IMG/VR virus record: IMGVR_UViG_3300048917_000249 | Span: 1 to 47,747 of that record | Length of the DNA: 47,747 nt | Direction: 5' to 3' (one strand) | Source of the DNA: a virus | Part shown: positions 1-47,163 of the stretch, in pieces | Numbering within the stretch: position 1 is the first letter of the stretch | Layout: the number at the start of each line of letters is the position of its first letter | The notes under the pieces: model-generated | Told to the model about the DNA's origin: nothing | Seen by the model: only the letters and a program-made list of their open reading frames with translations | The model's database searches: none | Position numbers and translations under genes: made by a program

Positions 1-127
1 CCCTGCAGCAGGCGCGCAACCGCCGCAACCTGGCAGAGCACCCGGCCGAGACGCCGATACTCAACACCGTCGGTGCTGTCGCCACCGCGCCGCTCACCGC
101 GCTGCGCGGCCTCGGCATTGGCTCGCT
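1..127. repeat. 127-bp terminal direct repeat, identical to 47621..47747 (circular-closure overlap)
   Basis: Read directly: ccctgcagcaggcgcgcaacc...ggcattggctcgct is present at both ends of the window. Confidence 0.95.
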
Positions 128-1679: not shown

Positions 1680-1680
1680 C

Positions 1681-4623
1681 ATGGCCTACATGGATGAAAT
1701 GGCGCTGGAGCGGGAGAAGTCCCGGCAGGCCATGATCGCCGGCAAGACGCCGATGTTTGGCGCCGATACCACGGCGGCCATGCACCAGCTCGGCATCAGC
1801 CTGGGTGTGATCCCGCCAGGCACGCCGCCGAGCCAGACCACCCAGGTGCTGGAGGGGCTGCTCAAGGGTGGCGGACTGGGCAAGATCAAGGTCGACGAGG
1901 CCACCCCACTCCAGGTGCCGACCCTGGCCGGCCGGATGACGGCGTCGCTGGCGCCGCACGGCCAGGCCGACGACGGCACCGGCGCCACGCTCGGTGCCAT
2001 ATTCAAGGGCGCCTCGGACAGTGCACTGCAACAGATGCTCCGCAACCAGCAGCGGCAGCAGGGACCAACGGCACCCGCCGGACCGGGGCCGGTGCAGGGG
2101 CCATACCGACCTGGGCCAGGCGCTAACCGGGCCAGGTTGAATGCACCGATGGCGCCGTCAGCCGCGGGCCCCGGTTACCAGGCCGACCTGGCCTACCTGC
2201 AAGAACGCGGCGGCCACCACAGCGTGCTGAAGGACGGCAAGATCGTTGACGCGCCGCTGACCCAGGCCGGCGGCTACAAGCAGATCGACCCCGAGCTCGC
2301 CGCCAGACTGCGCGCCGCCGGCGAGGCCTATGAGAAACAGAACCCAGGACAGAAGGCCCAATACGGCGAGTTCTCTCGCGGCGAAGACGTCCAGAAGATC
2401 TACCGCGACAGGTACGAAGCCGGCACCGGCGGCATCGCCGCCAGGCCGGGTGGCTCCCAACACCAGCACGGCGGCGCCGGCGACCTGCCGGATAGCGGTT
2501 TCAGGAAGTGGCTGTACGCCGGCAACCAGGACCAATTCGGACTCCACTTCCCGGTCAAAGGCGACGCCCCGCACGTCCAAGCCAACCCGGCTTACAAAGG
2601 GCAACCATTCTCTCAGCCAGCCCCGGCAGCGGGTGCGACACCGGCAGCGGGCGCGGCACCAGCCGGAGGCAATGCCGCTGGCGTGCCGCCGGAGCTATCG
2701 GCCTGGGTCGCCAAGAAAGAGAACTTCACCGACAAAGCCTTCGCCGATTACGGCGGTACCAACATCGGCTACGGCACGGCCGCCAACGGCCGCACCAGCA
2801 TCGACGAGCCGACCGCCCGCGCGGAAATGAATGCCGAGCTGAGCAAGCACCTGGCGACGATCGACGCGCTCAACCCGAACACCCCACCAGCAATCCGAAA
2901 CTCCCTGGCTTCGCTCGGCTTCAACACCGGCGGCGCGGCCCTCAAAGGCACCGGCCTGGCCGCCGCGGTGAAGGCCGGCGATTGGGCCAAGGCCAAAGAG
3001 ATCTTCATGCAGTATGACAAAGTCACCGACAGCGCCGGCAACAAAAAGCCGCTGCACGGCCTGACCATCCGCCGCGGCCAGGAGGCGCAAGCCTTCGACA
3101 ATCCGAACTTCTACAAAGACCCCAAGGCTGGGACGACGGCGGCACAGGATTGGGGTGGCAAGCAACATCCGGCGGCGCAACCCACAGCTCCTGCACAGGC
3201 TACTCCACAGGCTGCGGTACAGCCTGCGGCACCGGCGGCACCGGCTACGGAGCCCGCCAAGGCCGATGCCACGGTTGCTCCACAGGCTTCTCCACAGCTC
3301 GGTCCGTCTGGAGAAGAACCATTGCTGCCGGAAACGCCGGCGGATACACCAGCAACACCTGCGACACCGCCGGCCGCGCCGGCACCAGCTCCCGTGGCCG
3401 CGTCCCCAACCGCAGCACCGGCAGCGGCGGCGCCGGTTCCGCCCCCCGTGGCAGCTCCCCCTGTTGCAGAAGCGGTAAAACCGGCGCCGCCAGCGCCGCC
3501 GCCGGCGCCCGCGCCACCGCCGAAACCTGCGGCGCCCGCGGTCAACCCAGCCCATGCCATCCTCGACACCAAGATTGGCGACCTGGTGAAGCGCGGCGGT
3601 ACGCCGGCGCAGGCCGCGCAGGTGCCGGGCTGGATCGCCAATAAAACCCTGCGCGAGGGAATGAACATGCCCATAGTCGGCGGCCAGATCGCCGCCGGGG
3701 TGGAGCCGTACTTCGGCAAGATGGGCATCACCAAGCAGCAGTTTGACCAGGCCGTGAAGGAAGGTCCACCGAAGGCGGCGACGCTCGGCAAACGCAGTGA
3801 CCTCGGTACCTCGGACGCCACCGATTTCAGCGCCGCGCGCCGTCGGCCGGTGGACCCCAATGCAGCAACCCTGGATCCACTCCAACAGAAGCCGGTACAG
3901 AACGCCGACGGCTCAATCTCGACCGTGCGGACGATTGGCATCGAGGACCAAGGCAAGGAGGTTAACATCCCGACCGTGCCGCCCGAGGGTGGGAAGATCA
4001 TGTCGAATGCCGAGGCCGAGCAACGCTACCGCGACACCGGCAAGCACCTCGGCAAGTTCGATTCGGTCGAGGCGGCCGGCGCCGCCGCGGAGAAGCTGCA
4101 CCAGGACGAGGCGTCACGGATCTCCGAGCAACCGCAGGGTCAGCAGCCGGCGATGACGCCGGAGATTGCCAAGGCCCTGACCGACGCTTTCAAGGATCAG
4201 GACCGGGTAGCGCCGAATGCACCACCAACGTCGACACCGGCGGATGCGTTGCCGGTGCTGCCGGCGCAGCCCGCCGGACCCGCATCCGGTGGCGGGCTGT
4301 CGCTGGCACCCGCCGGTTTGAGCTCGATCCCGACCGGGGCGCTGCCGACCGGCGCACCGGGTAGCCAGGGCGGCGGCATCGCCATGGCCGGCATGCTGCC
4401 GCCGATCGAGAACAGCACCTACTCGACGCCGCTGCTCGACACCGCGGCAGCGAACCGTTCAAGCTTCGGCGCGCCCGGCCTGTCACCGATACCGATGCAG
4501 ACGCTGGGTGGCTGGGGCTGGGGTGGCGGCGGCAACATCGGTGCCGGGCTGGACTGGGGCGGTGGCTTCGACTTCGGCAGCGGCTCGAGTTCTATGCCGA
4601 TTATTGGCGGAGGCGGCTGGTAG
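1681..4623 (+). CDS. Large internal virion/ejection protein with M15-like peptidase and GH24 lysozyme-like domains
   Basis: ATG 1681 lies 2 nt after the upstream stop. SQHQHGGAGD...DAPH matches the zinc DD/LD-peptidase pattern (~2200-2590). KKENFTDKAFADYGGTNIGYG...RRGQEAQAF is lysozyme-like (~2690-3100). A Pro/Ala linker spans ~3170-3540, and the C-terminus is Gly/Trp-rich. Confidence 0.75.
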   Translation: MAYMDEMALEREKSRQAMIAGKTPMFGADTTAAMHQLGISLGVIPPGTPPSQTTQVLEGLLKGGGLGKIKVDEATPLQVPTLAGRMTASLAPHGQADDGTGATLGAIFKGASDSALQQMLRNQQRQQGPTAPAGPGPVQGPYRPGPGANRARLNAPMAPSAAGPGYQADLAYLQERGGHHSVLKDGKIVDAPLTQAGGYKQIDPELAARLRAAGEAYEKQNPGQKAQYGEFSRGEDVQKIYRDRYEAGTGGIAARPGGSQHQHGGAGDLPDSGFRKWLYAGNQDQFGLHFPVKGDAPHVQANPAYKGQPFSQPAPAAGATPAAGAAPAGGNAAGVPPELSAWVAKKENFTDKAFADYGGTNIGYGTAANGRTSIDEPTARAEMNAELSKHLATIDALNPNTPPAIRNSLASLGFNTGGAALKGTGLAAAVKAGDWAKAKEIFMQYDKVTDSAGNKKPLHGLTIRRGQEAQAFDNPNFYKDPKAGTTAAQDWGGKQHPAAQPTAPAQATPQAAVQPAAPAAPATEPAKADATVAPQASPQLGPSGEEPLLPETPADTPATPATPPAAPAPAPVAASPTAAPAAAAPVPPPVAAPPVAEAVKPAPPAPPPAPAPPPKPAAPAVNPAHAILDTKIGDLVKRGGTPAQAAQVPGWIANKTLREGMNMPIVGGQIAAGVEPYFGKMGITKQQFDQAVKEGPPKAATLGKRSDLGTSDATDFSAARRRPVDPNAATLDPLQQKPVQNADGSISTVRTIGIEDQGKEVNIPTVPPEGGKIMSNAEAEQRYRDTGKHLGKFDSVEAAGAAAEKLHQDEASRISEQPQGQQPAMTPEIAKALTDAFKDQDRVAPNAPPTSTPADALPVLPAQPAGPASGGGLSLAPAGLSSIPTGALPTGAPGSQGGGIAMAGMLPPIENSTYSTPLLDTAAANRSSFGAPGLSPIPMQTLGGWGWGGGGNIGAGLDWGGGFDFGSGSSSMPIIGGGGW

Positions 4624-32693: not shown

Positions 32694-32921
32694 ATGGCAA
32701 TGCCAAAAGTCCCGATCGTCAAGATTAATCCGCCGCCGGTTGCCAAGGCGCCGCCACTCACTTCCAAGACCATGGACACTTACACGCATCACACCTCGCC
32801 GGTGAAAGGCCCGCAGCCGATGCCGGCGGAAGTGGACCCCATCAGCTCCAAACCGAAAGCGAAGATCAAGACACTGCCGGACGTGCCGCCAGCCAAATAC
32901 AAGCATGTCGAAGAACCCTGA
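32694..32921 (+). CDS. Pro/Lys-rich small protein (75 aa) upstream of TerL
   Basis: ATG preceded by aaaggaaccacatc. There is no small-terminase motif. Confidence 0.5.
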   Translation: MAMPKVPIVKINPPPVAKAPPLTSKTMDTYTHHTSPVKGPQPMPAEVDPISSKPKAKIKTLPDVPPAKYKHVEEP

Positions 32922-34482
32922 CGAGGTCATCCAGCTCAAGCTGCTAAAGCGCAAACGTGCGATCCTGGATGCGCGTGGTGATCTGATTGCGTTCACGCAG
33001 CTGATGATGCCGGATCCCAATTTCGACGACAGCGTCGAGCATTCGCTGTATCAGCCGCAGAGTTTCCACCGGCTGATTGCCAAGTCGCTGGAGGAGGTCG
33101 AGCGCGGCGATTACCGGAGGTTGATGATCAATGTCGGACCCAGATTTGGAAAGACTACGCTCGCTAGTGCCATGTTTCCTGCATGGTACGTTGGTCGACA
33201 TCCTGACCGCTCTATTATTGTTGCTACTTACAACGAGCATTACAGCTGGGATCTTGGCCGTCGGGTAAGGGATATTATGGAGACACCTGAATACAAGCAG
33301 GTGTTCCCTGAAACAGAAATCAAAGTTGGCGCCAATGCGGTTAACCGAGTTCAGACGACGCGCGATGGGGTCGTCTTCTCTGTTGGACGTGGTTCCTCGA
33401 TCACCGGCCGCGGAGGTCACTGCATACTTCTTGATGACCCTATTAAGGACCGAACTGAAGCTGACTCCGTTATCGTTCGTGAGAAACTATGGAGCTGGTA
33501 TAATCAAGTGCTCCGTACCCGGCTCATGGACTCAACGGGCACTATCGTCATTGTCCAGACCAGATGGACCGAGGATGACTTAGTCGGTCGCCTGATCGAC
33601 CCGATGAATCCGTACTTCAACGTCGAGGAAGCCAAGGCCTGGCGCAAGATCGACCTGCCGGCGTTAGCGGAAGCGGATGATCCACTCGGCCGTAAGGAGG
33701 GAGAACCACTATGGCCGGAGCGGTTTACTAAGCAATATCTGGAGGAGATCCGCTCCACCGATCCGCGTGGCTTTGCTGCGCTGTATCAAGGCCGACCCGG
33801 ACCCAAGGACGGCGCCTTCTTCAAGTCTGACGACATCATCACCTACAACAAGATGGATGACGTCCCGGCGTTCCATAAACTCAGGTTCTATGGCGCGTCG
33901 GACCATGCCGTATCGGTTGCTAAATCCGCCGATAAGACCTGCCTCCTGATCGCTGCGGTCGACGAGAAAGACCACATCTGGATCATGCCGGACCTGGTCT
34001 GGGAGCGCCTCGATTCGCATGACGCGGTCGAGCGCATGCTCGGTCTGATGAAGAAATACCACCCGCAGTTCTGGTGGGCGGAAGGCGGCAGCATCACCAA
34101 GAGCATCGGTCCGTTCCTGCGCCGGCGGATGCGGGAAAAGCAGATCTTCTGCGCCATCGACCCGATCAGCCCGGCTGCAGACAAGCAGCAGCGCGCCCAG
34201 GCGATCCAGGCCCGATCGTCAATGAAGATGGTACATTTCCCCGGCTTTACCCGCTGGTGGTCTGATGCCTTGGATCAGATCCTGAAGTTTCCGCACGGAT
34301 CGAAGGATGATCTGGTAGATACATTAAGCTTGATCGGATTGGGGCTTGCCAAAATGCACGGCCGTACCCGCACCAGGCATGTTGAACCTGAGATCGTGGC
34401 AGGTTCGTTCCGTGAAATGATCGAGAACACGCGCCGGCGTGAAGGGCGTGAAAAGCGCGGCAGGAGTCTGCAAGGATGGTAG
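32905..34482 (+). CDS. terL: terminase large subunit
   Basis: Walker A is GPRFGKTT and Walker B is ILLDDPIKD, with QTRWTEDD following. The C-terminal nuclease region has GASDHA...LLIAAVD. Confidence 0.9.
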   Translation: MSKNPDEVIQLKLLKRKRAILDARGDLIAFTQLMMPDPNFDDSVEHSLYQPQSFHRLIAKSLEEVERGDYRRLMINVGPRFGKTTLASAMFPAWYVGRHPDRSIIVATYNEHYSWDLGRRVRDIMETPEYKQVFPETEIKVGANAVNRVQTTRDGVVFSVGRGSSITGRGGHCILLDDPIKDRTEADSVIVREKLWSWYNQVLRTRLMDSTGTIVIVQTRWTEDDLVGRLIDPMNPYFNVEEAKAWRKIDLPALAEADDPLGRKEGEPLWPERFTKQYLEEIRSTDPRGFAALYQGRPGPKDGAFFKSDDIITYNKMDDVPAFHKLRFYGASDHAVSVAKSADKTCLLIAAVDEKDHIWIMPDLVWERLDSHDAVERMLGLMKKYHPQFWWAEGGSITKSIGPFLRRRMREKQIFCAIDPISPAADKQQRAQAIQARSSMKMVHFPGFTRWWSDALDQILKFPHGSKDDLVDTLSLIGLGLAKMHGRTRTRHVEPEIVAGSFREMIENTRRREGREKRGRSLQGW

Positions 34483-37109
34483 ACACTTTCCAATCCTCCA
34501 TGATGGATGTGTTCGCTGGCGCTTTTGATGAAAACAACAGTGAGCCGGACATCAACCCAACCACCGGCAAGCCCAATAGCATTCCGCGGGCTAACCCGGA
34601 TCCGCCCGAGCGGCGCCGCAAGCTGGTCAAGGACTGGACCCGCAAGGTCAAGCGGGCGAAGCGGTACTGGAAGCCATCATTCGATCGGATGCGCGAGGAT
34701 CAGGCGTTTGCCTTTGGCAAGCAGTGGTCGAAGAACGACCAGGACAAGCGTTACGTCGCCAATCTCACACTCCGGCTGGTCGCGCAGAAGACTGCCTTCC
34801 TTTATGCCAAGAACCCCAAGGCGGTGGCCAAGAAGCGGCCGCGGCTCAATGCCACCTCATGGGATGAATCCCAGACCACGTTGAACCAGCTAATGCAGTC
34901 TGCGGCCATGATGATGCAGCAGGCGCAAGCCTCTGGCGCCATGGCTGGCGGAATGCCGGGCATGCCTGGGGGGATGCCCGGCATGCCACCCGGCCTGGCC
35001 GGCCAGGCCACCGGCGCGATCGGCAACACCATCCAGGGCATGATGCCGATGGCGACCGGGCAACCTCCCGACATCGGCATGCTGATGGCCGGCGGCGGTG
35101 CGCCCACGCAGTCGGCGATGCCGTCGCCGTCGATGAACTCAATAGCGGGCCAGACCGGCGCCGCCCTCGGCGGCGCCACCATGCCTGGTATGGGCGCCGG
35201 CCCAATCCCCGGGTCGATGCAAGAGCCGCAGCGGCTCGGCGACCAGCTCGGCCAGGCCGCCGCCGGCGCCGCAGCCAACAACCTGGTGCCCCCTGGATCA
35301 CCGATGGTGGCGCAGGCGGTCGGCTCCGGCATGGACATCATGATGGACGCCGCCCGCGTCAAAAACGAAAACCTGATGATGGACAAGCTCGCTCGCACCT
35401 TGGAGCTGCTTTACAGCTACGAGGTCGACAACCAGCCGCATCCATTCAAGGGCATGCTGAAGATGACCGTGCGTCGGGCGGTCACCAACGGCGTCTCCTA
35501 CGTCAAGCTCGGCTACGAGCGGGTCATGGCGCTACGTCCAGATCTGGAGAAGGGCATCGCCGACATGAACGAGCGGCTGGCGACCTTGCAGCGCCTGGCT
35601 GCGGATGCCACCGACAGCATCACGGACGACACCGATCAGGAAGCCGAGCAGATCCGGTTGCTGGTCGCGGACCTGCAGAAGCAGCAGGGCGCGGTGGTCC
35701 GCGAAGGTCTTACCTTTGATTTCCCGCAGAGCACTAGGATCATTCCCGACATCAAGTGCATCGACATCAAGAATTGGGTGGCGGCCGATTGGGTTTGCGA
35801 AGAGTACCTGCTGTCGGTCGACGAGATCGAGGAGATCTACAACGTCGATGTCCGCGGTCATTGCACCGAATACGGATCCGACGACGAAGACAGCAACGAT
35901 CCGGCCGCGACCATGCACTCCTGGTCGAACACCAAGAACAGCAAGGATGAGGCGCGCGGCGATCCTAACGCCTTGGTGTGGGAGATCTACAATCGCAAGG
36001 ATGGTCTGGTCTATGTCATCTGCGATGGCTATCGCGAATTCTTGAAAGAGCCGGCCGGGCCAGAGATCTACAACGAACGGTTCTATCCCTGGTACGGCTT
36101 GATCTTCAACGGCCTTGAAGATGAGAAGGAGCTGTATCCGCCGAGCGATGTCAGGCTGATGCGCGACATGCAACTCGAATACAATCGCTGCCGCGAAGGC
36201 CTGAAAGAGCAGCGCATCGCTGGCCGGCCGTTCATCGCCGCGGTGTCGGGCGCGCTGGATGAAGAAGACCTCAACAAGATCACCAACCGCGAAGCCAACG
36301 CGGTGATCGAGCTCAACGCGCTGCAGCCGAACCAGGATATCAAACAGCTGCTGCAGCCTTACGCCGGCCCGGGGGTGGATCCTAACCTCTACGAAGTCAG
36401 TCCGGTCTACGAAGACATTCTGCGGACCACCGGCATTCAGGAAGCCAACTTAGGCGGCACCTCGAACACCACCGCGACCCAGGCGCAGATCGCCGAAGGC
36501 TCGCGCATGACCAGCATGGGTTCTAATATCGACGACTTGAACGACCTGTTAACCCAACTAGCCCGCAACGGCGGGCAGATCCTACTGCGTGAAATGAGCC
36601 AGGAGCGGGTTAAGAAGATCGTCGGGCCTGGCGCAGTGTGGCCCGCCGAGCCGGTCGCCCAGGACATCGCCAACGAGATCCTGCTGGAGATCGAAGCCGG
36701 TTCGATGGGCCGGCCGAACCAGGCGCAAGAGATCTCTAACGCCCAGCGGCTGATGCCGCTGCTCATCCAGCTGCCCGGCATCGACCCGGAATTCCTCGCC
36801 AAGGAGACGCTGCGCCGATTGGACGATCGCCTCGACCTCACCGAGGCTTTCAAGTCCGCGCTTCCGTCGATCGTGGCCATGAACGGAGCGATGTCGGGCG
36901 CCGGCGCCGGTCCCGCCGGACCGACCGCGCCAGGGGCCGGCGCCGGACCGGGAGCTTCGATGGGTCCACAGGGAGCCGTCAACGCGCCTGGTGGCGGCTC
37001 AGCAGGTCCGCCACCGAGCGCGCCGGATGCCCAGACCACACTGGATGGCGCACCGCCGGGTCGACCGCATCCGATGCCGTCACAGGTCAAGATGCCGGGG
37101 CTGCCGTGA
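34476..37109 (+). CDS. portal protein (877 aa) with a Met/Gly/Pro-rich insertion
   Basis: It directly follows and overlaps TerL. Size and position fit a portal. The low-complexity block spans ~34890-35230. Confidence 0.75.
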   Translation: MVDTFQSSMMDVFAGAFDENNSEPDINPTTGKPNSIPRANPDPPERRRKLVKDWTRKVKRAKRYWKPSFDRMREDQAFAFGKQWSKNDQDKRYVANLTLRLVAQKTAFLYAKNPKAVAKKRPRLNATSWDESQTTLNQLMQSAAMMMQQAQASGAMAGGMPGMPGGMPGMPPGLAGQATGAIGNTIQGMMPMATGQPPDIGMLMAGGGAPTQSAMPSPSMNSIAGQTGAALGGATMPGMGAGPIPGSMQEPQRLGDQLGQAAAGAAANNLVPPGSPMVAQAVGSGMDIMMDAARVKNENLMMDKLARTLELLYSYEVDNQPHPFKGMLKMTVRRAVTNGVSYVKLGYERVMALRPDLEKGIADMNERLATLQRLAADATDSITDDTDQEAEQIRLLVADLQKQQGAVVREGLTFDFPQSTRIIPDIKCIDIKNWVAADWVCEEYLLSVDEIEEIYNVDVRGHCTEYGSDDEDSNDPAATMHSWSNTKNSKDEARGDPNALVWEIYNRKDGLVYVICDGYREFLKEPAGPEIYNERFYPWYGLIFNGLEDEKELYPPSDVRLMRDMQLEYNRCREGLKEQRIAGRPFIAAVSGALDEEDLNKITNREANAVIELNALQPNQDIKQLLQPYAGPGVDPNLYEVSPVYEDILRTTGIQEANLGGTSNTTATQAQIAEGSRMTSMGSNIDDLNDLLTQLARNGGQILLREMSQERVKKIVGPGAVWPAEPVAQDIANEILLEIEAGSMGRPNQAQEISNAQRLMPLLIQLPGIDPEFLAKETLRRLDDRLDLTEAFKSALPSIVAMNGAMSGAGAGPAGPTAPGAGAGPGASMGPQGAVNAPGGGSAGPPPSAPDAQTTLDGAPPGRPHPMPSQVKMPGLP

Positions 37110-38182: not shown

Positions 38183-39304
38183 ATGCCTGTTTATACCGCG
38201 CCACTACTCGCGCATATCACCACTGCTGCTCTCGATTGGTGGATGAACAAAGGGACCGCCTTCCAGGAGGCGATCCAGGAGAAGCCGCTGCTCGCGGCGA
38301 TGGAGTCCAAGAAGAAATCGTTCCCGGGCGGCAAGGGCAATATTGTCATTAGCGTCAAGGGAGATTACGGCAACACGGCCGCGCCCGGCACCGATGATCA
38401 GCTCAAAGGCTATGAGCTGGCCGACAGCGTGACCTACTACACGCCGGCCAACCTGACCCAGGCGATCTTCCCCTGGAAGGAACACCACATCGGCATCATG
38501 ATGACGCACTCGGAACTGAAGTCCGATGGCATCAGCGTTACCGATGGCCCTGGCATGGAGGAGGACACCTCCGAGCATTCCGGCCGTGACGATACCGTCC
38601 TGGTCGGCCTGCTGCAGGACGCCTTGCAAGACGTCTCCGAGCAGTATGCCCGCGGCATGAACAACCTGCTGTGGACCAACGGTGCCACGGACGCCAAGGC
38701 CCTCGCCGGCATGGCGGCACTTATCACCGACGATCCGACCACCGGCATTGTCGCCGGCATCAACCGCGGCCAGAAGCCGTGGTGGAGAAACCGCGCCTAC
38801 ACGACCGCAATGGGTGCAGCTGTGACAGCCACACCGGCGCTGTCGGCATGGGGTGGCGGACCGATCACCTCGGCCGCGGCCAACGGCGGTGCGTTGATCA
38901 CCTTGCTCCAGAAGGAGTATCGGCAGCTGACCCGGTACGGCGCCAAGCCGAACACTGGGTTCTGTGGATCCGACTGGCTCACCGCCCTGGAGACAGAGCT
39001 GCGTGCCAACGGCAACTACTCGATGCAGGGCTTCTCCGGCGGCAAAGACATCTCGGTCGGTCAGATCTCCTACATGGGAACCGACTTCGAGTATGACCCG
39101 ACGCTCGATCAGCTCGGCAAGAGCAAGCGTTGCTATTGGTATGACTCGCGAGACATCTACCTGGTTGCCATGCAGGACGAGTGGCGGCACCAGCATTCAC
39201 CCGAGCGGGCACCCGACAAGTACGTCATCTACCGCTCGATCACTTCGACCGGACAACTCTGTGCGCGGCGTCTTAACGGCGCTGTCGTGATGGATATTGC
39301 CTGA
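38183..39304 (+). CDS. major capsid protein
   Basis: Position after the scaffold gene and a size of 373 aa fit a major capsid protein. No motif-level proof. Confidence 0.7.
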   Translation: MPVYTAPLLAHITTAALDWWMNKGTAFQEAIQEKPLLAAMESKKKSFPGGKGNIVISVKGDYGNTAAPGTDDQLKGYELADSVTYYTPANLTQAIFPWKEHHIGIMMTHSELKSDGISVTDGPGMEEDTSEHSGRDDTVLVGLLQDALQDVSEQYARGMNNLLWTNGATDAKALAGMAALITDDPTTGIVAGINRGQKPWWRNRAYTTAMGAAVTATPALSAWGGGPITSAAANGGALITLLQKEYRQLTRYGAKPNTGFCGSDWLTALETELRANGNYSMQGFSGGKDISVGQISYMGTDFEYDPTLDQLGKSKRCYWYDSRDIYLVAMQDEWRHQHSPERAPDKYVIYRSITSTGQLCARRLNGAVVMDIA

Positions 39305-41042: not shown

Positions 41043-42401
41043 ATGACCAACTGCCACGTCACGCCTGGTGGTGAGATCGAGAAGCGGATGGCTTTCGTGC
41101 CATTCTGGGCGTGCGATCCATTGAGCAAAGGCATCGTCGAAGTTAACCAGAAGCTCTACGCCTTCGGCCCGAACGGCCCCTACACCGTCGAGCCGCCGTC
41201 CGGCACCTGGTCGGTTGGTGTCCTTGGACAAGCCACGCCAACCATCTTTGAAATCATCGACTACGACCTGTTCGACAACAAGGTCTTCACCCTGTTGTGG
41301 AAGGACGCTGCCGGCACGGTCGGCCGCTACTACGACGGCGTCGACCAGCCGTGGGCGCGCGGCTTCTATTGCCGGACCTACAAGAACAAGATGTACACGG
41401 TGGAAAACTCCATCTTGTATTTTTCCGCCAACGGCAATGCGGGTGACTGGTCTGGCTTGAACCCGAACGACCCGTCGAAATACACCAACTACATCGACCT
41501 CTCGTTGGGCGACAGCGACATGTCCGACAGCGTGGCGCTGGAGGTGTACTACGACAAGCTGGCGATCTTCTCATCGACCGCGGTGCAGCTGTGGATCATG
41601 GACCCGGACTTCACCAAGAACCAGTACGTCCAGACCCTGCGTCAGGCCGGCACCACGGCCTGGCGCAGCGTGATGCAGTATGGCTCCGGCGACGTGATGT
41701 ACCTGTCGCAGTCCGGCGTCAGATCGCTCCGCGCTAGAAACTCTTCACTAGCCGCGGCGGTGTCCGACATCGGCTCGCCGCTGGATCCGCTGCTGCAGGA
41801 TCTGTTCCGCAGCATGGGCCAGGACTGGATGAGCGGCACCATCGCGCTGCTGCAGCCGGTCACCGGAAGATTCTGGATCATCATGGCCGGATCCAAAGCC
41901 ACACCTGACGCGCCGCTGACATCTAAAATATACGTTCTATCGGCCTTCCCCGGCCCGAAGATCACGGCTTGGAGTGAGTACGACGCCGGCTTCGTCATCA
42001 CCGCGGCCTGCATATACAAGAACCGTGTGGTGGTTCGCGACGACAAGAATCAGGTCTACGCCTACGGCGGCATCTCCGACATCGGTCCGACTTATGATAA
42101 TTGCCCGGTCGAGCTGATCTTCCCATTCCACGCCGGCGAGGGTGTCGCCACCTTCAAGTCCTTTGCCGCGCTCGATGCCACCTGCTCCGGCGTACCCTGG
42201 CAAGTATCGGCCGCGTTCAATGTTCAGGATTCCACGGTCGAGGACTTCATCGGCATCTTCGACGGCCCGTCGTTCCCGCAAGGCAAGATCCAGCTGTACG
42301 GCCACACCACTCACATGTCGCTGCGGCTGCGCTCGCAGGACATCGGCCCGCAGGTGCTGTCCAACCTGATCGTCCACTACCAGGGAGGTGAGACCGGATG
42401 A
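41043..42401 (+). CDS. virion structural protein (tail hub/nozzle candidate); the 5' end is probably longer
   Basis: Track ORF. The same frame is open back to 40902 and reads ...TFTITDFAAGLDLRRSELTAPAGTLRA before M1. A strong RBS with an ATG sits at 40955 in another frame. Confidence 0.7.
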   Translation: MTNCHVTPGGEIEKRMAFVPFWACDPLSKGIVEVNQKLYAFGPNGPYTVEPPSGTWSVGVLGQATPTIFEIIDYDLFDNKVFTLLWKDAAGTVGRYYDGVDQPWARGFYCRTYKNKMYTVENSILYFSANGNAGDWSGLNPNDPSKYTNYIDLSLGDSDMSDSVALEVYYDKLAIFSSTAVQLWIMDPDFTKNQYVQTLRQAGTTAWRSVMQYGSGDVMYLSQSGVRSLRARNSSLAAAVSDIGSPLDPLLQDLFRSMGQDWMSGTIALLQPVTGRFWIIMAGSKATPDAPLTSKIYVLSAFPGPKITAWSEYDAGFVITAACIYKNRVVVRDDKNQVYAYGGISDIGPTYDNCPVELIFPFHAGEGVATFKSFAALDATCSGVPWQVSAAFNVQDSTVEDFIGIFDGPSFPQGKIQLYGHTTHMSLRLRSQDIGPQVLSNLIVHYQGGETG

Positions 42402-42916
42402 TCAACATCGCGGTCGCCGACCGGGGCATGATCGATCATGTGCTGCAAGGCCTGCGTGCGGCCGATGTCGAAGAGATGACCGCGGCCGGCACCGACATCG
42501 GCAAGCTCGCCGTGCAGATCATGCGACACAAGCTGTTTGCTTTTTGCGCCTGGGGCTTTGACTGCGGTCCAATCGCAGTGTGGGGCCTGGTGCAGAAGCG
42601 CCAGGGCGTCGGTGCCGGATTCGCCTTCGGCACTGACGACTGGGGCCGCGCCGTGCTACCAATGGTCAAGCAGATCCGCGGATTTGTCCTGCCACTATTA
42701 GTCGACCTGAATATCCACCGCGTCGAGGCGGTGGCAATGCGTAAGCGCGACGATGTCAGACGTTTCATGAGTTTGATTGGTGCCAAGGCCGAAGGCACGC
42801 TGACCGGCTATGGCACTTACGGCGAAGACTTTGTCTCTTACCGATGGCTATCTGATGAATATGGCAGTCACCGAACTCAAGAAGCCCAAGCGGACTGTGC
42901 GTACCCCGCACATTAA
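42398..42916 (+). CDS. T7 gp13-like/DUF2833-like (acetyltransferase-fold) internal virion protein
   Basis: RAADVEEM...CGPIAVWGL...GAGFAFGTDDW...RFMSLIGAKAEG resembles the gp13/DUF2833 pattern as I recall it. Confidence 0.5.
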   Translation: MINIAVADRGMIDHVLQGLRAADVEEMTAAGTDIGKLAVQIMRHKLFAFCAWGFDCGPIAVWGLVQKRQGVGAGFAFGTDDWGRAVLPMVKQIRGFVLPLLVDLNIHRVEAVAMRKRDDVRRFMSLIGAKAEGTLTGYGTYGEDFVSYRWLSDEYGSHRTQEAQADCAYPAH

Positions 42917-43364
42917 TATCCGCATGGGCGAGTCCAAGGATGCGGCGATGGTCGCCGAATTCCTCGGGCATTTCTTCGAGCTGTCGAAGTGGTCGGAGTT
43001 CCTGAAGTATCACCAGGAGCGGACCAGGGTGTACCTGCAAGCCGCGATCGGCACTCAGTTCGCCATGTACGTCCTGGCGATGGACGGCGAGGAAATGGTG
43101 GGTGTCTGTTCCTACCATGTGTTCGGTGTGTTCTCTGAACCAATGGCGGTGATGGACGAGACTTACACTATACCAAAGTATCGCCGCACTGACCTTGGGC
43201 GCAGGTTGATCGAAACCGTCATCACGCTGGCCCGCGCCGATGGCTGCAAGGTGATGAATTTTCCCATCTGCTCGGGGATGAAGGAGCAGAACTCCCTCAT
43301 GAACATGATCGGCCGGCACTTCGGCGCCGAGCCGGTCGGCATGATCTTCAGAAAGAAACTCTGA
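42861..43364 (+). CDS. GNAT-family N-acetyltransferase
   Basis: VMDETYTIPKYRRTDLGRRLIETVITLARADGCKVM is GNAT motif A-like. The start is 42855, 42861 or 42810. Confidence 0.65.
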   Translation: MAVTELKKPKRTVRTPHINIRMGESKDAAMVAEFLGHFFELSKWSEFLKYHQERTRVYLQAAIGTQFAMYVLAMDGEEMVGVCSYHVFGVFSEPMAVMDETYTIPKYRRTDLGRRLIETVITLARADGCKVMNFPICSGMKEQNSLMNMIGRHFGAEPVGMIFRKKL

Positions 43365-43365
43365 T

Positions 43366-43389
43366 ATGACAGTCAACGGACAGGTGTGA
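43366..43389 (+). other. 7-codon mini-ORF (MTVNGQV*) ending in the conserved stop-start cassette
   Basis: Read directly: atg aca gtc aac gga cag gtg tga, then c, then ATG 43391. Confidence 0.35.
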
Positions 43390-43390
43390 C

Positions 43391-43684
43391 ATGGGCGGCA
43401 AAGGCAGAAGCAATCAGCAGATGCAGACGGAAACCGCCCCACCGCCGCCGGCGCCTGACGTGCCACTGCCAGCTGCACCTGAAGCGCCGCCGCCACCGCC
43501 GCCACCGCCGCCACCGCCACCACCAGACGTGCCGCCACCGGCGGCACCGCCGCCTGACATTACGCCGATCTCGCCAGGCGAGGCGATAAGCCAGGTGGAA
43601 GTGACAAAGGATCCCACGAAAACAACCGGCGACTTGCTGGCGCAATCCGTTGCGGATCCCACCAACCTAACCGGGCAGGTGTGA
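43391..43684 (+). CDS. small MGGK-initiated protein 1, poly-proline (97 aa)
   Basis: Starts MGGKGRS and ends TGQV*. Contains 13 consecutive Pro codons. Confidence 0.7.
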   Translation: MGGKGRSNQQMQTETAPPPPAPDVPLPAAPEAPPPPPPPPPPPPPDVPPPAAPPPDITPISPGEAISQVEVTKDPTKTTGDLLAQSVADPTNLTGQV

Positions 43685-43685
43685 C

Positions 43686-44024
43686 ATGGGCGGCAAGGGC
43701 GGCGGCGGCGGCAACTACTACCAGCAACCCGTCGACAAGTCGGGCAATTCCACGCTGGAGGAAGCGACCAAGACGCTCGCCAACACGGCGCCGGTCGACA
43801 TGTCCAAGATCCAGTCGAACATCGACGTCAAGAAAGCCGCCGCGGCCGCGACCGCGAAGCCGCAGGATACCGTAACCAGTGTTACCGCACCGGCCGAAGG
43901 CGTGTCCGGCACCGAAACCACCAAAGACACCACCGGAGACGTCGCCAAGAAGGCTGTACTGACGCCGCCGAAGTTCTGGGAAGATTACGCAAAAGATCCC
44001 AATACAACAAACACACAGGTGTGA
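43686..44024 (+). CDS. small MGGK-initiated protein 2 (112 aa)
   Basis: Starts MGGKGGG and ends NTQV*. The junction is identical to the other two. Confidence 0.7.
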   Translation: MGGKGGGGGNYYQQPVDKSGNSTLEEATKTLANTAPVDMSKIQSNIDVKKAAAAATAKPQDTVTSVTAPAEGVSGTETTKDTTGDVAKKAVLTPPKFWEDYAKDPNTTNTQV

Positions 44025-44025
44025 C

Positions 44026-44670
44026 ATGGGTGGCAAAAGCGGACCATCAAATAACCAAGCCGTGCAGCTGCAGATGCAGCAGGCGCAGGAAGCCAGGGAC
44101 AAGGAGAACGCGCGCCAGGCCCGGCTCAACCAGGGCAAGACCGCGATCGATAACATCTTTGGTAACGACAACTTCGGCGATCCGTTCTACGACAAGTATA
44201 AGAACGCCGAGCTGGACTACACGCTGCCGCAGCTGAGTACCCAGTACACCGAAGCGAAACGTAACGCCGAGAATGACCTGGCTCGAGCTGGTCTGCTGCG
44301 ATCAGGCGCTGCCGGCTTCGTGCAGAACAAGCTGACCCAGCAGCAGGGCGTCAATGAAGCAGGGCTCCGCGCCAAGGCCGACACTGATACAGCGGCGTTG
44401 CGACAGAGCATCGCCGCCCAACAGCAGCAAGCCTACAACCAGCTGTACGCCACCGAAGACCCGACCGTCGCTGCCAACACGGCCGCTAACTCGGCCGCCA
44501 ATGCCCAGCTGCAACAGCCGAACGTCAGCGCGTTAGGTGATATGTTCAAGCCGATCGCGATCGGCCTGGGCTCGGCGATCGCACCAACGTATGGGCAGTC
44601 TGAAGCCAACCGTCAGCTCGCTGCCGCCAGCGGCCGCGGCCAGGGCAACATAACTACGACGCAGGGTTAA
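44026..44670 (+). CDS. MGGK-initiated protein 3, Gln/Ala-rich (214 aa)
   Basis: Starts MGGKSGP. The sequence has an internal-protein-like composition. Confidence 0.75.
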   Translation: MGGKSGPSNNQAVQLQMQQAQEARDKENARQARLNQGKTAIDNIFGNDNFGDPFYDKYKNAELDYTLPQLSTQYTEAKRNAENDLARAGLLRSGAAGFVQNKLTQQQGVNEAGLRAKADTDTAALRQSIAAQQQQAYNQLYATEDPTVAANTAANSAANAQLQQPNVSALGDMFKPIAIGLGSAIAPTYGQSEANRQLAAASGRGQGNITTTQG

Positions 44671-44674
44671 GCTT

Positions 44675-45370
44675 ATGTGCGACCCGATCTCGATCATTGG
44701 CTTAGGCTTCTCGATCGGCATGCAGATGTACAACATGCAGCAGCAAGCCGACATGGCGAGCCAGCAGCAGTCTGCCAATGATCAATGGGTCGCCTACCAG
44801 CGCAAGCAGTCGCAGGACTTCCAGGCCCGCGACGAGAGCCTGCGCCAGAACGCCGAGGCGGCGCGGCATGGCTCGCTTGATGAGCTCAGCGCCGCCAACC
44901 AAACGATAGCGCAAGGCAAGGAAGCCGACCGGCTGACGACATCGTTGACGCCGGAAGACATTGCCAAGCAGGCGGCTGGTGATCCGAATGCGCTCGCCAG
45001 CGCGATGTTTTCGGGCCAGCAGGGCGGCTCGCAGGAGATGCAGACCCAGATCCAGGGCAGCATCCAGCAGGCCGCGGTCGAGGCCCGCAAGCGCATTGCC
45101 GCGCTCGCCAACGTGCAGTCCTACGGCGGCTCGCAGTACGGTCTGACCAACCGCGCCAACACCATCTTCAATGCTGCAGGGCAGGACATCCGCCTGGCCG
45201 GCAACGAACGCGCCGGCGACCTGTCGGCCTACAATATCGCCAAGGCGGTCGAACCCATTCACATCGCGCAGTACAGTGGCGGTTCGGCTGGCGGCCTGGC
45301 GACCGCCGGCGCCCAGTTCACAGGCCAGCGGCTCGGCAACACGCTGGCATCGAGCATGGGGAGCGCCTGA
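44675..45370 (+). CDS. internal virion protein with a hydrophobic N-terminus (231 aa)
   Basis: N-terminus MCDPISIIGLGFSIGMQMY, with Gln/Ala-rich sequence after it. Confidence 0.7.
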   Translation: MCDPISIIGLGFSIGMQMYNMQQQADMASQQQSANDQWVAYQRKQSQDFQARDESLRQNAEAARHGSLDELSAANQTIAQGKEADRLTTSLTPEDIAKQAAGDPNALASAMFSGQQGGSQEMQTQIQGSIQQAAVEARKRIAALANVQSYGGSQYGLTNRANTIFNAAGQDIRLAGNERAGDLSAYNIAKAVEPIHIAQYSGGSAGGLATAGAQFTGQRLGNTLASSMGSA

Positions 45371-47163
45371 TGGCCTCGGATTTCCTGCGGTTCCAGCAAG
45401 ATCCTTCGCTGGGTAATGCGTTAACCGGCATCGTCTCCGACATCGCCGCCGCGCCCGGCAAGGCGTTGAGCAACACCCATACGGTCGAGGAAATCCTGGC
45501 GCTGCGCGCCAAGCAGAAGCGCGACCAGGCGGAATTCGACGCCAACACCGCCGCCGGCAACGCTACAGCTGCTGCCTTAGCCGGCGTCGGGCCGCCGTTG
45601 AGCACGCGCGATGTTCAGTTTCAACCGCAAGGGCCGGTTAATCCGGCCGATCCGGTCGACCCCAATGCCGTGAAGCTCGGCGACCAGATGGTGCTGCCAT
45701 CATATGCGTCGACCGAGCAGTACATCGACCCGAAGGTGGCCGAACGGTACAAGCGCGAGCTGCCGATGTTTCAGGGTATCGCCAAGGCGGAAGCCTACAA
45801 GAATCCAGGCGGCGTTCCCGGCATCTATTCCAGGGCTTCTATCGGCCTGGGTGGCGCCCCGACCGATCCGGCCGAGATGCAGCGGCTGTCCGGCATCACC
45901 ACCGGCACGGTCACGCCACTCAAGGGCGAGCCCTACGTCGCCGTGTCACCGGACGGCAAGACCCAAATGGTCCTCGGCATGTCCCCGGATGGCGGTGTCC
46001 ACGACATGCAAGGCCGGCTCATGAAAGACATCGCGCCACAAGGCACCGTCCCTGTGCAGGCCAGTAACGTAAATGTCGGGGCTAAGCCGCACTCGATATT
46101 CGAGAACGAAGGCACTCGAATGGCGGCGATCACGGACGCCAACAATGCCGTCCTCGCTGGCAAGCCGCCCAATCCAGCAGACACCCGTAACATATCGATC
46201 GCGATCCGCCAGCAGTACCCGGAGATCAATAAGCTGATGCCCGACGCCGTCGGCAACACCACGGAATTCCGCAACTACGTCGAGAGGGAAGCACCGCCAG
46301 AAATGCAGCCGATCCTGCGGCACATCTACAATACGCTGCCGGAATTCAAACAGCCGCAGGCGGCGGCCGCGGTGCCGGGCGCTGATCCGTCGACTGCGGG
46401 CGCCGTGGTGCAGCAGGCGACCCCGACCCTGCCGGGGATGCGGCCGGCCACCGGCCCGCAGCCGAACATCCTCGTCAATCAGCCGGCCAGTCAGTACCAG
46501 AATCATCTGGGCTTTGCGGTTCAGCGCGCCGACACCGAGCGCCAGCACATCGTGTCGATGATCTTCAACGGCCAGCCAATACCGCCGTCGGGGATGCTGC
46601 CGAAGGATGCCTACCTGCCGGACTGGAAGGCGGCGCTGATCGCCGAGAACCACCCCGATGGGCTCATCAGCAGACAGCTGATGAACGCGGTCGACCCCAA
46701 AGCGCAGGAATATTACGCCGCGGCCAAAGCCTGGATCGAGCCGGTGCTGCGGCTGGCCTCGGGCGCCGCGATCCGAACCGAAGAATACAAAGACTACATG
46801 TACATGTTCATCCCGATGACCGGCGACAGTCAGCAGCTGGTCGCGCAGAAGCTCAACCGCATGCGGGAATGGCAAGAAGCGACCGGCGGCAACGCCACCG
46901 CCAACCAGGCCACCGCCACCTTGATTGCCAAGGCTAATGCGAACAAAGACCCTGAGATGGCCCGCCTGGCCAGCATGATGCAGATCAGGGCCAGGGAAGC
47001 CAAAACCGCCGACATCCCGGCAACCCAATTGCCGGCGGTCGCGCCAAAGGCGCCGGGTGCTCCGGGTGCTACAGGTGCCAACGTACCGAACCCAGCCGCG
47101 GTGCAATCGCTCATGAACACGATCCGGGGCAGCGGTGGCGGTGCAGAAACAGGAGGACTGTAA
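45370..47163 (+). CDS. large internal virion (ejection) protein (597 aa)
   Basis: ATG overlaps the upstream TGA. Position fits an internal protein, but no motif was recognised. Confidence 0.75.
   Translation: MASDFLRFQQDPSLGNALTGIVSDIAAAPGKALSNTHTVEEILALRAKQKRDQAEFDANTAAGNATAAALAGVGPPLSTRDVQFQPQGPVNPADPVDPNAVKLGDQMVLPSYASTEQYIDPKVAERYKRELPMFQGIAKAEAYKNPGGVPGIYSRASIGLGGAPTDPAEMQRLSGITTGTVTPLKGEPYVAVSPDGKTQMVLGMSPDGGVHDMQGRLMKDIAPQGTVPVQASNVNVGAKPHSIFENEGTRMAAITDANNAVLAGKPPNPADTRNISIAIRQQYPEINKLMPDAVGNTTEFRNYVEREAPPEMQPILRHIYNTLPEFKQPQAAAAVPGADPSTAGAVVQQATPTLPGMRPATGPQPNILVNQPASQYQNHLGFAVQRADTERQHIVSMIFNGQPIPPSGMLPKDAYLPDWKAALIAENHPDGLISRQLMNAVDPKAQEYYAAAKAWIEPVLRLASGAAIRTEEYKDYMYMFIPMTGDSQQLVAQKLNRMREWQEATGGNATANQATATLIAKANANKDPEMARLASMMQIRAREAKTADIPATQLPAVAPKAPGAPGATGANVPNPAAVQSLMNTIRGSGGGAETGGL

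Follow-up and report, generated by a model that had tools for sequence, protein, structure and literature searches.

Comparative evidence tying a GNAT-fold acetyltransferase gene to Gly2 N-termini of small ejection-module proteins in a podovirus clade

The modification of ejection proteins by phage enzymes is essentially unexplored, and the role of internal virion protein A (IVP-A), known as gp13 in phage T7, has never been explained. T7 IVP-A 'matches as an acetyltransferase' in HHpred, is needed for morphogenesis and is not retained in virions (Hardies 2016, PMC4819975, the latter two points citing Kemp 2005), and the Pfam label of its family, PF11090, is 'probable scaffold protein'. Another T7 protein, gp6.7, wraps the portal barrel with its residues 2-15 in 12 copies (PMC11784390), which by analogy offers a plausible reason why the N-terminus of a small ejected protein might matter. 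The present analysis concerns the IMG/VR virus record IMGVR_UViG_3300048917_000249, a podovirus-type genome of ~47.7 kb from soil whose full length of 47,747 nucleotides (nt) is called the window below. The genes of interest follow the tail hub gene in this order: an IVP-A-type gene of the GCN5-related N-acetyltransferase (GNAT) fold, called gp13-like; a second, canonical GNAT gene, called GNAT throughout; a tandem array of paralogs whose products start MGGK; and the genes of gp14-like, gp15-like and lysozyme-bearing proteins. This region is the start of the internal-virion (ejection or core) module of a podovirus clade with prophage copies in Bradyrhizobium. A sequence-only reading of the window had placed two acetyltransferase-fold genes ahead of three consecutive MGGK(G/S) genes, in the neighborhood of the ejection-protein genes. 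Both statements are borne out, the first by PHROG 308, PF00583 and the open reading frames (ORFs), the second by the internal-virion module and by the N-terminal motif of GNAT-less relatives (MC..PKVDT), which matches the portal-binding loop of T7 gp6.7.

Comparison among relatives gives real support to a functional tie between GNAT and the Gly2 N-termini of small proteins of this module. The rule that emerges, IVP-A with Cys2 and the second GNAT with Gly, Ser or Ala at residue 2, points to an undescribed step of N-terminal modification or recognition in core assembly. If true, core assembly and genome delivery in podoviruses would gain a step not known before, and thousands of small virion proteins now labeled 'hypothetical' could be annotated by a rule read from genomes.

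Residue 2 of P3 and the GNAT-fold genes

The third MGGK gene of the window (44026..44670, plus strand) encodes P3, a 214-aa protein starting MGGKSGPSNNQ and the conserved founding member of the array. In distant clades whose GNAT is 34-36% identical, P3 is the sole array gene, and P3 is the ancestral member and the shorter genes its paralogs. P3 has >200 close homologs, including copies in Bradyrhizobium chromosomes; its superfamily, collected at E<=1e-3, comprises 1337 clusters of 50% identity. Among the best 150 representatives of that superfamily, residue 2 is G in 56, C in 37, S in 27 and A in 9 (85% together). Homologs also occur in two cultured phages, Rhizobium phage RHph_N65 and Microcystis phage Mae-Yong1326-1.

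Co-variation was followed in 67 P3 clusters at 80% identity, the divergent loci being drawn from profile scans and classed by local hidden Markov models (HMMs). Three states are found. With gp13-like only, P3 starts Met-Cys in 12/12 clusters and in 3 short contigs, typically as MC..PKVDT(S/N), and the gp14-like protein is also Met-Cys. With both gp13-like and GNAT (51 clusters), residue 2 of P3 is Gly in ~40, Ser in 4, Ala in 1, Val in 1 and Cys in 5, and the gp14-like protein retains Met-Cys. With GNAT only (3 clusters: L173, L178, L185), P3 starts MA, MS or MG, and the gp14-like protein is not Met-Cys but reads MVAAAPL or MGGMLGL. The 67 clusters hold neither a non-Cys P3 without GNAT nor a Cys2 protein without gp13-like, and the association between GNAT presence and P3 residue 2 has an uncorrected Fisher p = 3e-10. 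Since P3 of the GNAT-less relatives starts Met-Cys, and Cys2 is always accompanied by IVP-A, each of the two GNAT-fold proteins appears to have an N-terminal class of its own to serve.

Within one GNAT-bearing clade, residue 2 of P3 flips repeatedly between Cys and Gly (MCFGGGSDDSS in L258, MGGKSDDSSS in L259, MCDLFGGSS in L262, MGSLFGGGE in L265), whereas in equally divergent GNAT-less lineages it is always Cys. Both cultured phages carry gp13-like; RHph_N65 also has GNAT, and its P3 starts MGKKGGG, while the P3 of Mae-Yong1326-1 starts MCRLPGPKIDTT and no GNAT is found anywhere in its complete genome. The residue-2 rule is likewise obeyed by additional array genes, which start MGGK in GNAT-bearing genomes and MC in the GNAT-less L152. 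The L152 gene (2795-3943) lies between gp13-like and P3 and encodes 382 aa starting MCPTNGST.

Wherever GNAT is present, residue 2 of P3 is small and cleavable by methionine aminopeptidase (MetAP), being G, S, A, V or C, as expected of a substrate of an N-terminal acetyltransferase (NAT). These five residues form the classical substrate set of the NatA- and Rim-type enzymes. Several GNAT-linked N-termini are without Lys (MVGGGGNN, MAGSAPTN, MSGSHSSN, MGGGGGGGDN), and in at least four GNAT-linked lineages (L143, L177, L179, L185) the first 10 or more residues include none; these Lys-less N-termini favor the alpha-amine over Lys4 as the target. Lys4, named as an alternative site in the sequence-only reading, is thus an unlikely general target. 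The analogy with N-myristoyltransferase (NMT), also put forward from the sequence alone, is not supported: no NMT domain is found, and the Ser, Ala and Val at residue 2 in relatives argue against an NMT-type specificity. The two genes are separable, gp13-like occurring without GNAT and GNAT without gp13-like, and each tracks a different N-terminal class, so they do not behave as one NMT-like enzyme. Within the three MGGK proteins of the window themselves, ORF translations confirm that residue 6 is R, G and G in proteins 1-3 and that protein 3 has Pro7, as the sequence-only reading had stated. Of its broader proposal, a GNAT gene pair acylating Gly2, the link of the motif-A GNAT to Gly2-type starts is strengthened by the co-variation, and the joint action of the pair falls away.

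The Cys2 side of the rule can be followed across podoviruses. An IVP-B that starts Met-Cys, with an IVP-A gene directly upstream, is found in T7 (MCWAAAIP, L212), in epsilon15 (MCSPAIAL, L290), in the whole window clade and in 8/8 sampled diverse phages (L291-L298), namely Ralstonia P-PSG-11, Vibrio 1.021.A, Pseudomonas AF, Prochlorococcus P-SCSP1k, Nostoc Nsp-JY18, Pelagibacter EXVC019P, Rhizobium RHEph01 and Vibrio ICP3, the last with an annotated start of MKMC. T7 gp6.7 likewise starts MC. In the tubB-IVP-B region of SP6 (MAIGTALT, L288) and phiKMV (MAFWLPLL, L289), no IVP-A homolog stands at this position, and in RIO-1 (L299), whose IVP-B starts MGIEVAIG, a different small protein takes its place; Hardies 2016 (PMC4819975) is among the sources for the lack of IVP-A at that position in these three phages. 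P22 is the one exception seen, as IVP-A (gp14) is present, yet gp7 starts MLYAFT. According to a RefSeq note, host OpdA removes the first 20 residues of P22 gp7, exposing KGGKGGADKSAK. The proposed link between IVP-A and Cys2 would thus span T7-like, epsilon15-like, cyano-, pelagi-, vibrio- and rhizobiophages. As far as could be found it has not been described before: our literature search turned up no account of podovirus ejection proteins being modified at the N-terminus, of a gp13 substrate or of Cys2, and neither 'cysteine' nor 'acetyl' occurs in the ejection-protein review PMC8954989.

The mature N-terminus of P22 gp7 (L249, 9369-10058) is all but identical to the N-terminus MSGGGKGGADNSAKK that P3 has in the GNAT-only L178 (3989-4630). 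P22 gp7 and the P3 family may share ancestry; the pairwise comparison with L178 P3 gives an uncorrected E of ~5e-5 and is negative in hhalign. Homology of P3 to T7 gp6.7 was considered as well. Four P3 homologs have no Pfam match to the gp6.7 family PF17570, and hhalign aligned only 'MC'. With Pfam, PHROG and hhalign negative, and with only N-terminal motifs and weak uncorrected BLAST scores in its favor, homology of P3 to either protein is no more than a lead.

The two GNAT-fold genes and the MGGK array

The gp13-like gene (42398..42916, plus strand) encodes 172 aa that match PHROG 308 over the full length (E 2.5e-9), the family that T7 gp13 itself matches at 1e-42; no Pfam match is found, PF11090 being absent at E<=0.1. 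The gene lies where a member of the T7 gp13 family would be expected, flanked by the tail-tube-B/hub gene on one side and the genes of internal virion proteins on the other, and right after the P22 gp10-like tail hub gene in every relative. Its AlphaFold model (predicted local distance difference test, pLDDT, 90.4) has GNAT acetyltransferases as all of its top Foldseek matches in the PDB (E ~3e-9, TM 0.6-0.7), in agreement with the HHpred result of Hardies 2016 (PMC4819975). The coenzyme A (CoA) pyrophosphate loop is degenerate, reading FGTDDWGRA where the canonical form is Q/RxxGxG/A, and the region is not Gly-rich in relatives either.

The GNAT gene (42855..43364, plus strand) encodes 169 aa, scores 37.6 bits on PF00583 (Acetyltransf_1), where the cutoff is 20.7 (E 2.9e-9), and also matches the acetyltransferase family PHROG 1249. 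The AlphaFold model (pLDDT 89.9) resembles >600 PDB GNAT chains at E<=1e-3 with a TM of ~0.65; polyamine acetyltransferases come first in the Foldseek ranking, NatD/NAA40 ranks 5, 7 and 10, RimI-type enzymes rank ~42-50, and PaiA appears too. A subfamily assignment was attempted with NCBIfam, a PDB sequence search and Foldseek, which gave generic GNAT similarity only. Residues D113-L114-G115-R116-R117, D101-E102 and S86-Y87-H88 are invariant in 39 homologs. The motif A region of the window protein, compared with Q/R-x-x-G-x-G/A, reads R110-R-T-D-L-G115-R-R, Asp replacing the first Gly. Because the Pfam cutoff is passed and the loop and the acidic, His and Tyr residues are invariant, the enzyme looks catalytically intact. 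GNAT lengths range over 148-172 aa.

The GNAT gene overlaps the 3' end of gp13-like by 62 nt in the window. An overlap of ~60 nt in different frames is kept in all close relatives, which suggests coupled expression. The RHph_N65-type GNAT (L135, 5473-5919) occupies the same position, and its similarity to the window GNAT is confined to a BLAST E of 0.55 and cross-HMM scores of 5-38 bits. Such barely similar proteins could stem from one ancient gain with very fast divergence or from two independent acquisitions.

Downstream of GNAT, essentially all related IMG/VR contigs have an array of MGGK(G/S/D/A) genes, between 1 and 5 in number. Scans of IMG/VR with GNAT, P3 and the tail-hub proteins yielded ~130 loci, all ordered tubA, tubB, gp13-like, GNAT, array, gp14-like, gp15-like. 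In most relatives the GNAT stop codon overlaps the first MGGK start (TGATG). Besides P3, the window carries protein 1 (43391..43684, plus strand; 97 aa, MGGKGRSNQQ at the start, Pro-rich, ending ..PTNLTGQV) and protein 2 (43686..44024, plus strand; 112 aa, MGGKGGGGGNYY...NTTNTQV), the conserved penultimate member, whose ortholog (MGGKGGGG[GQ][NDQ]YY) directly precedes P3 throughout the close clade. All three are hydrophilic and rich in Gly, Pro, Gln and Thr, and MGGK begins no further plausible ORF of the window. Array members share a C-terminal, strand-like motif (..S-[MIL]-x-T-T-Q-[TV] or ..TGQV), and their interiors are dissimilar and of low complexity. Some relatives (L023 4813-5632; L043 4020-5339; L044 4339-5633) have extra array genes that start MPW, MPY, MPT, MGW or MGF; these end ..S[IL]S[LTI]TK, and this shared ending indicates that more array members have the C-terminal motif in common than the N-terminal motif. 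Protein 1 also includes 13 uninterrupted prolines inside a longer Pro/Ala-rich stretch (43480-43540), and the DNA of this run is the only part of the region with blastn matches in cultured phages (Achromobacter and Mycobacterium phages).

Each MGGK gene begins one base past the preceding stop codon, and the same sequence CAGGTGTGAC-ATGGG stands before all three MGGK starts. It is part of a 48-nt junction repeat (..CAGGTGTGAC-ATGGGNGGCAA) present in three copies on the plus strand (43360..43407, 43655..43702 and 43995..44042), the first of which runs through ..GQV codons, a Shine-Dalgarno (SD)-like AGGTG, TGA and C into ATGGGNGGCAA. A mini-ORF, MTVNGQV* (43366..43389, plus strand), is the 3' remnant of a fourth MGGK gene, the first of the array, as an alignment with the 99%-identical L001 reveals. 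The missing gene encodes 131 aa starting MGGKSPGS... and is intact in the 99%-identical contigs L001-L003; protein 1 is present in L001 with a GTG start. The mini-ORF and the intact gene of such close relatives together indicate that array copy number shifts by recombination, and the near-identical junction repeats probably mediate this gain and loss of genes.

Two other explanations of the junctions were examined and rejected. A constraint on ATGGGNGGNAAR at the RNA level is ruled out by free third codon positions and by variable upstream junctions in relatives. Among 142 distinct MGGK genes, codon 2 is GGC in 81, GGT in 57 and GGA in 4, and codon 4 is AAA in 86 and AAG in 56; the free third positions, with junctions that differ among relatives, place the constraint on the peptide and not on the RNA. 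A programmed +1 frameshift at GTG-TGA-C, which recalls prfB, was considered because every ORF lies in the +1 frame of the one before it. It is disfavored since re-pairing on UGU is impossible for a tRNA-Val that sits on GUG in the P site, and since an SD and an ATG of its own precede or open every gene. The simpler reading of these junctions is termination-reinitiation.

Readings of the co-variation

In the reading we prefer, GNAT would N-alpha-acylate the small-residue N-termini of P3 and its paralogs after Met removal, and gp13-like would serve the Cys2 class, a proposal to which we give a probability of roughly one half. Array proteins would first be deformylated and then lose Met1, because Gly2 is a MetAP substrate. 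GNAT, whose gene would be translationally coupled to those of its presumed substrates, would then move an acyl group, most probably the acetyl group of acetyl-CoA, onto the alpha-amine that Met removal leaves free on residue 2. Capping would be required for docking in the procapsid core or for action on ejection. IVP-A would serve the Cys2 N-termini and GNAT the Gly, Ser and Ala ones, and one speculative reason is that an N-terminal Cys could be acylated through a thioester intermediate with little catalytic help, Gly, Ser and Ala needing a full N-acetyltransferase. A more tentative extension makes of this a residue-2 code for podovirus ejection proteins, with IVP-A acting on the Cys of gp14- and gp6.7-type proteins and the second GNAT on the Gly, Ser or Ala of P3-type proteins and their paralogs, both sets being N-acylated, possibly lipidated, and needed for core assembly or membrane insertion.

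A number of points weigh against the preferred reading. Comparison shows gene order, folds, family memberships, protein-level conservation and the co-variation; catalysis, the substrate, the acyl donor and the purpose of the modification are inferred from these. The co-variation has moderate phylogenetic weight, since 41% of neighbor-joining (NJ) bootstraps of the first data set placed GNAT-bearing and GNAT-less lineages on the two sides of one clean split, which limits phylogenetic independence. Because of these ambiguous bootstraps, an attempt to tally separate gains and losses of GNAT was abandoned. Five GNAT-bearing lineages have Cys2 on P3, so GNAT does not force a non-Cys start, and the MPW, MPY and MPT starts of some array genes are poor NAT substrates. 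The GNAT model is structurally closest to polyamine acetyltransferases, its likeness to NatD and RimI is unspecific, and against the NCBIfam model for rimI (TIGR01575) the protein scores 17.6 bits where the cutoff is 86.4, which leaves it outside that NAT family. T7 gp7.3 starts MGKK in a phage without a second GNAT, and mature P22 gp7 exposes KGGKGG by host proteolysis, also without GNAT, which indicates that a Gly/Lys-rich N-terminus can function alone. Finally, we infer the virion location of the MGGK proteins, and the gp14-like label of the ORF at 44675-45370 comes from its position and from an MC-plus-hydrophobic N-terminus.

The co-variation fits binding and catalysis equally, and GNAT could therefore be a chaperone or adaptor that binds the client N-terminus for delivery to the procapsid core, residue 2 being the key contact. 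A recognition step of this kind, without chemistry, is what the T7 protein might suggest, with IVP-A required in morphogenesis and absent from virions (Hardies 2016, PMC4819975), with PF11090 named a probable scaffold protein in Pfam and with gp13-like devoid of the canonical Q/RxxGxG/A loop. Yet the second GNAT scores above the Pfam gathering threshold and keeps the pyrophosphate-loop region as well as acidic, His and Tyr residues that are invariant and that active enzymes typically have, and recognition alone leaves unexplained why each allowed residue 2 is MetAP-cleavable and NAT-compatible. On balance, we regard it as unlikely.

Cys and Gly are the two classical residues of N-terminal lipidation. 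One GNAT-fold gene tracks each of these residue classes, and the MGGK genes lie within the ejection module, so that a long-chain lipidation may be envisaged in which GNAT, alone or with gp13-like, would put a fatty acyl group from acyl-CoA or acyl-acyl carrier protein on Gly2, and IVP-A would do so on Cys2. The outcome would be lipid-anchored membrane-penetration proteins comparable to the myristoylated VP4, mu1N and VP2 of animal viruses, and the insertion of gp14-type proteins into the outer membrane after ejection (PMC8954989, PMC11784390) would fit with it. Set against this, Ser, Ala and Val occur at residue 2 with GNAT, unlike the strict Gly2 of NMT; GNAT has only 148-172 aa, no NMT or HlyC-type Pfam match and short-chain acetyltransferases as its nearest relatives; and gp13-like and GNAT are found independently, which excludes an obligate NMT-like pair. 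Moreover, the MGGK proteins are hydrophilic and Gly/Pro/Gln/Thr-rich, and the T7 cryo-electron microscopy of gp6.7 residues 2-15 on the portal barrel reports no lipid (PMC11784390). The odds of long-chain lipidation thus look poor.

It might also be supposed that there is no functional link at all, MGGK and its junction being a reinitiation cassette spread by tandem duplication and GNAT an unrelated accessory gene, for instance a polyamine or antibiotic acetyltransferase. The three window junctions are indeed near-identical at the DNA level, each with the SD-like AGGTG and a stop codon, recombination varies array copy number, polyamine acetyltransferases head the Foldseek list of GNAT, and a single acquisition is possible for part of the data. 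However, MGGK is kept through synonymous codon changes while the junctions differ widely among relatives, MGGK or MGKK stands on a single-copy P3 in the distant clades with GNAT identity of 34-36%, and residue 2 flips repeatedly in GNAT-bearing lineages and never in GNAT-less ones. The gp14-like N-terminus, too, changes upon loss of gp13-like, and taken together these observations make the absence of any link improbable.

The histone H4 tail SGRGKGGKG resembles MGGKGG, and most GNAT-linked N-termini have a Lys within their first 4-7 residues. An N-epsilon acetylation of Lys4 and nearby lysines, in the style of histone tails and modulating DNA or portal binding (T7 gp7.3 contacts DNA through K84/K85, PMC11784390), is nevertheless highly improbable, as residue 2 and not Lys co-varies with GNAT presence and the Lys-less lineages listed above carry GNAT all the same.

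Genome context and comparison with known systems

The window encodes a large terminase (32905-34482), a portal (34476-37109), a major capsid protein (38183-39304) and a family A DNA polymerase, and has no tRNA genes. Two tail genes directly precede the block discussed here; one of them, of 452 aa, shares 34% identity with a Microcystis phage Mae-Yong1326-1 protein, the 'packaged DNA stabilization protein' (P22 gp10 type). Beyond P3 lie the 231-aa candidate IVP-B, or T7 gp14-like protein (44675..45370, plus strand), and the 597-aa large internal virion (gp15-like) protein (45370..47163, plus strand), whose position is kept in relatives and which has no family match in Pfam or PHROG. The former starts MCDPISIIG, an N-terminus of the same type as those of T7 gp14 (MCWAAAIP) and epsilon15 gp14 (MCSPAIAL); it has no PHROG or Pfam match, and its pairwise E values of 0.003-0.02 against T7 gp14 or P22 gp7, without composition correction, are not significant. 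At the other end of the record, positions 1-4000 have a G+C content of 68% versus ~60% and a strong positive AT skew, and cover ORFs of 479 aa and 997 aa, the latter with a lysozyme-type domain; both are presumably the last internal virion proteins. Isolated phages include no close relative of the window at the DNA level, and P3 and GNAT have zero tblastn matches in the phage collection. P3 homologs of 63-64% identity are found in the 8-Mb chromosomes of B. ottawaense and USDA 326 (P0113, P0116). The P3 copies in Bradyrhizobium chromosomes indicate that the clade includes prophages and that Bradyrhizobium is a likely host genus.

The closest described system is the T7 gp13/IVP-A family (PHROG 308, PF11090), which includes epsilon15 gp13 and P22 gp14 and shares family, position and GNAT fold with the ORF at 42398-42916. 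T7, epsilon15 and P22 differ in having no second, canonical GNAT, whereas the window has one right after gp13-like.

For the second GNAT, the nearest parallel in function would be the N-terminal acetyltransferases (RimI/J/L, NatA, NatD/NAA40), which have the GNAT fold and act on small residues after Met excision, as proposed here. NatD/NAA40 acetylates histones H4 and H2A, whose N-terminus reads SGRGK. This Gly/Lys-rich substrate resembles the MGGK starts, and both NatD and RimI-type enzymes are among the Foldseek matches of GNAT. The Rim and Nat enzymes part from the present case in that GNAT is phage-encoded, that it presumably acts on internal virion proteins of the same phage, whose genes come directly after its own, and that it has no equivalog score. 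NMT and its viral substrates, VP4 of picornaviruses, mu1N of reoviruses and VP2 of polyomaviruses, are alike in coupling small Gly2 proteins released on entry to an N-terminal amine chemistry performed by a GNAT fold. However, NMT consists of two fused GNAT folds over ~400 aa and has an absolute requirement for Gly2, while here two separate proteins of ~170 aa have no NMT or NMT_C Pfam match, and GNAT-linked P3 may also start MS, MA, MV or MC.

On the substrate side, P3 recalls T7 gp6.7 (PF17570) and gp7.3, which are small, of low complexity and ejected, as is proposed for P3. The gp6.7 start MCFSPKIKTPKMDTN resembles the GNAT-less P3 start MC..PKVDT(S/N), for instance MCFSKPKVDNS, and the MGKK of gp7.3 resembles other P3 starts. 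In contrast, T7 gp6.7 has 88 aa and its gene lies upstream of the portal gene, whereas P3 has 205-390 aa and its gene lies between those of IVP-A and IVP-B. P22 gp7, with a mature start close to that of L178 P3, illustrates another route to a Gly/Lys-rich N-terminus of an ejection protein, exposure there being due to proteolysis of a 20-residue leader by OpdA and here, presumably, to Met excision. The internal proteins IPI-III of T4 are dissimilar proteins, packaged and ejected, that share an N-terminal capsid-targeting sequence cleaved by the prohead protease. Like them, the members of the MGGK array have a short N-terminus in common; unlike them, they also share a C-terminus, and no link to a protease is evident.

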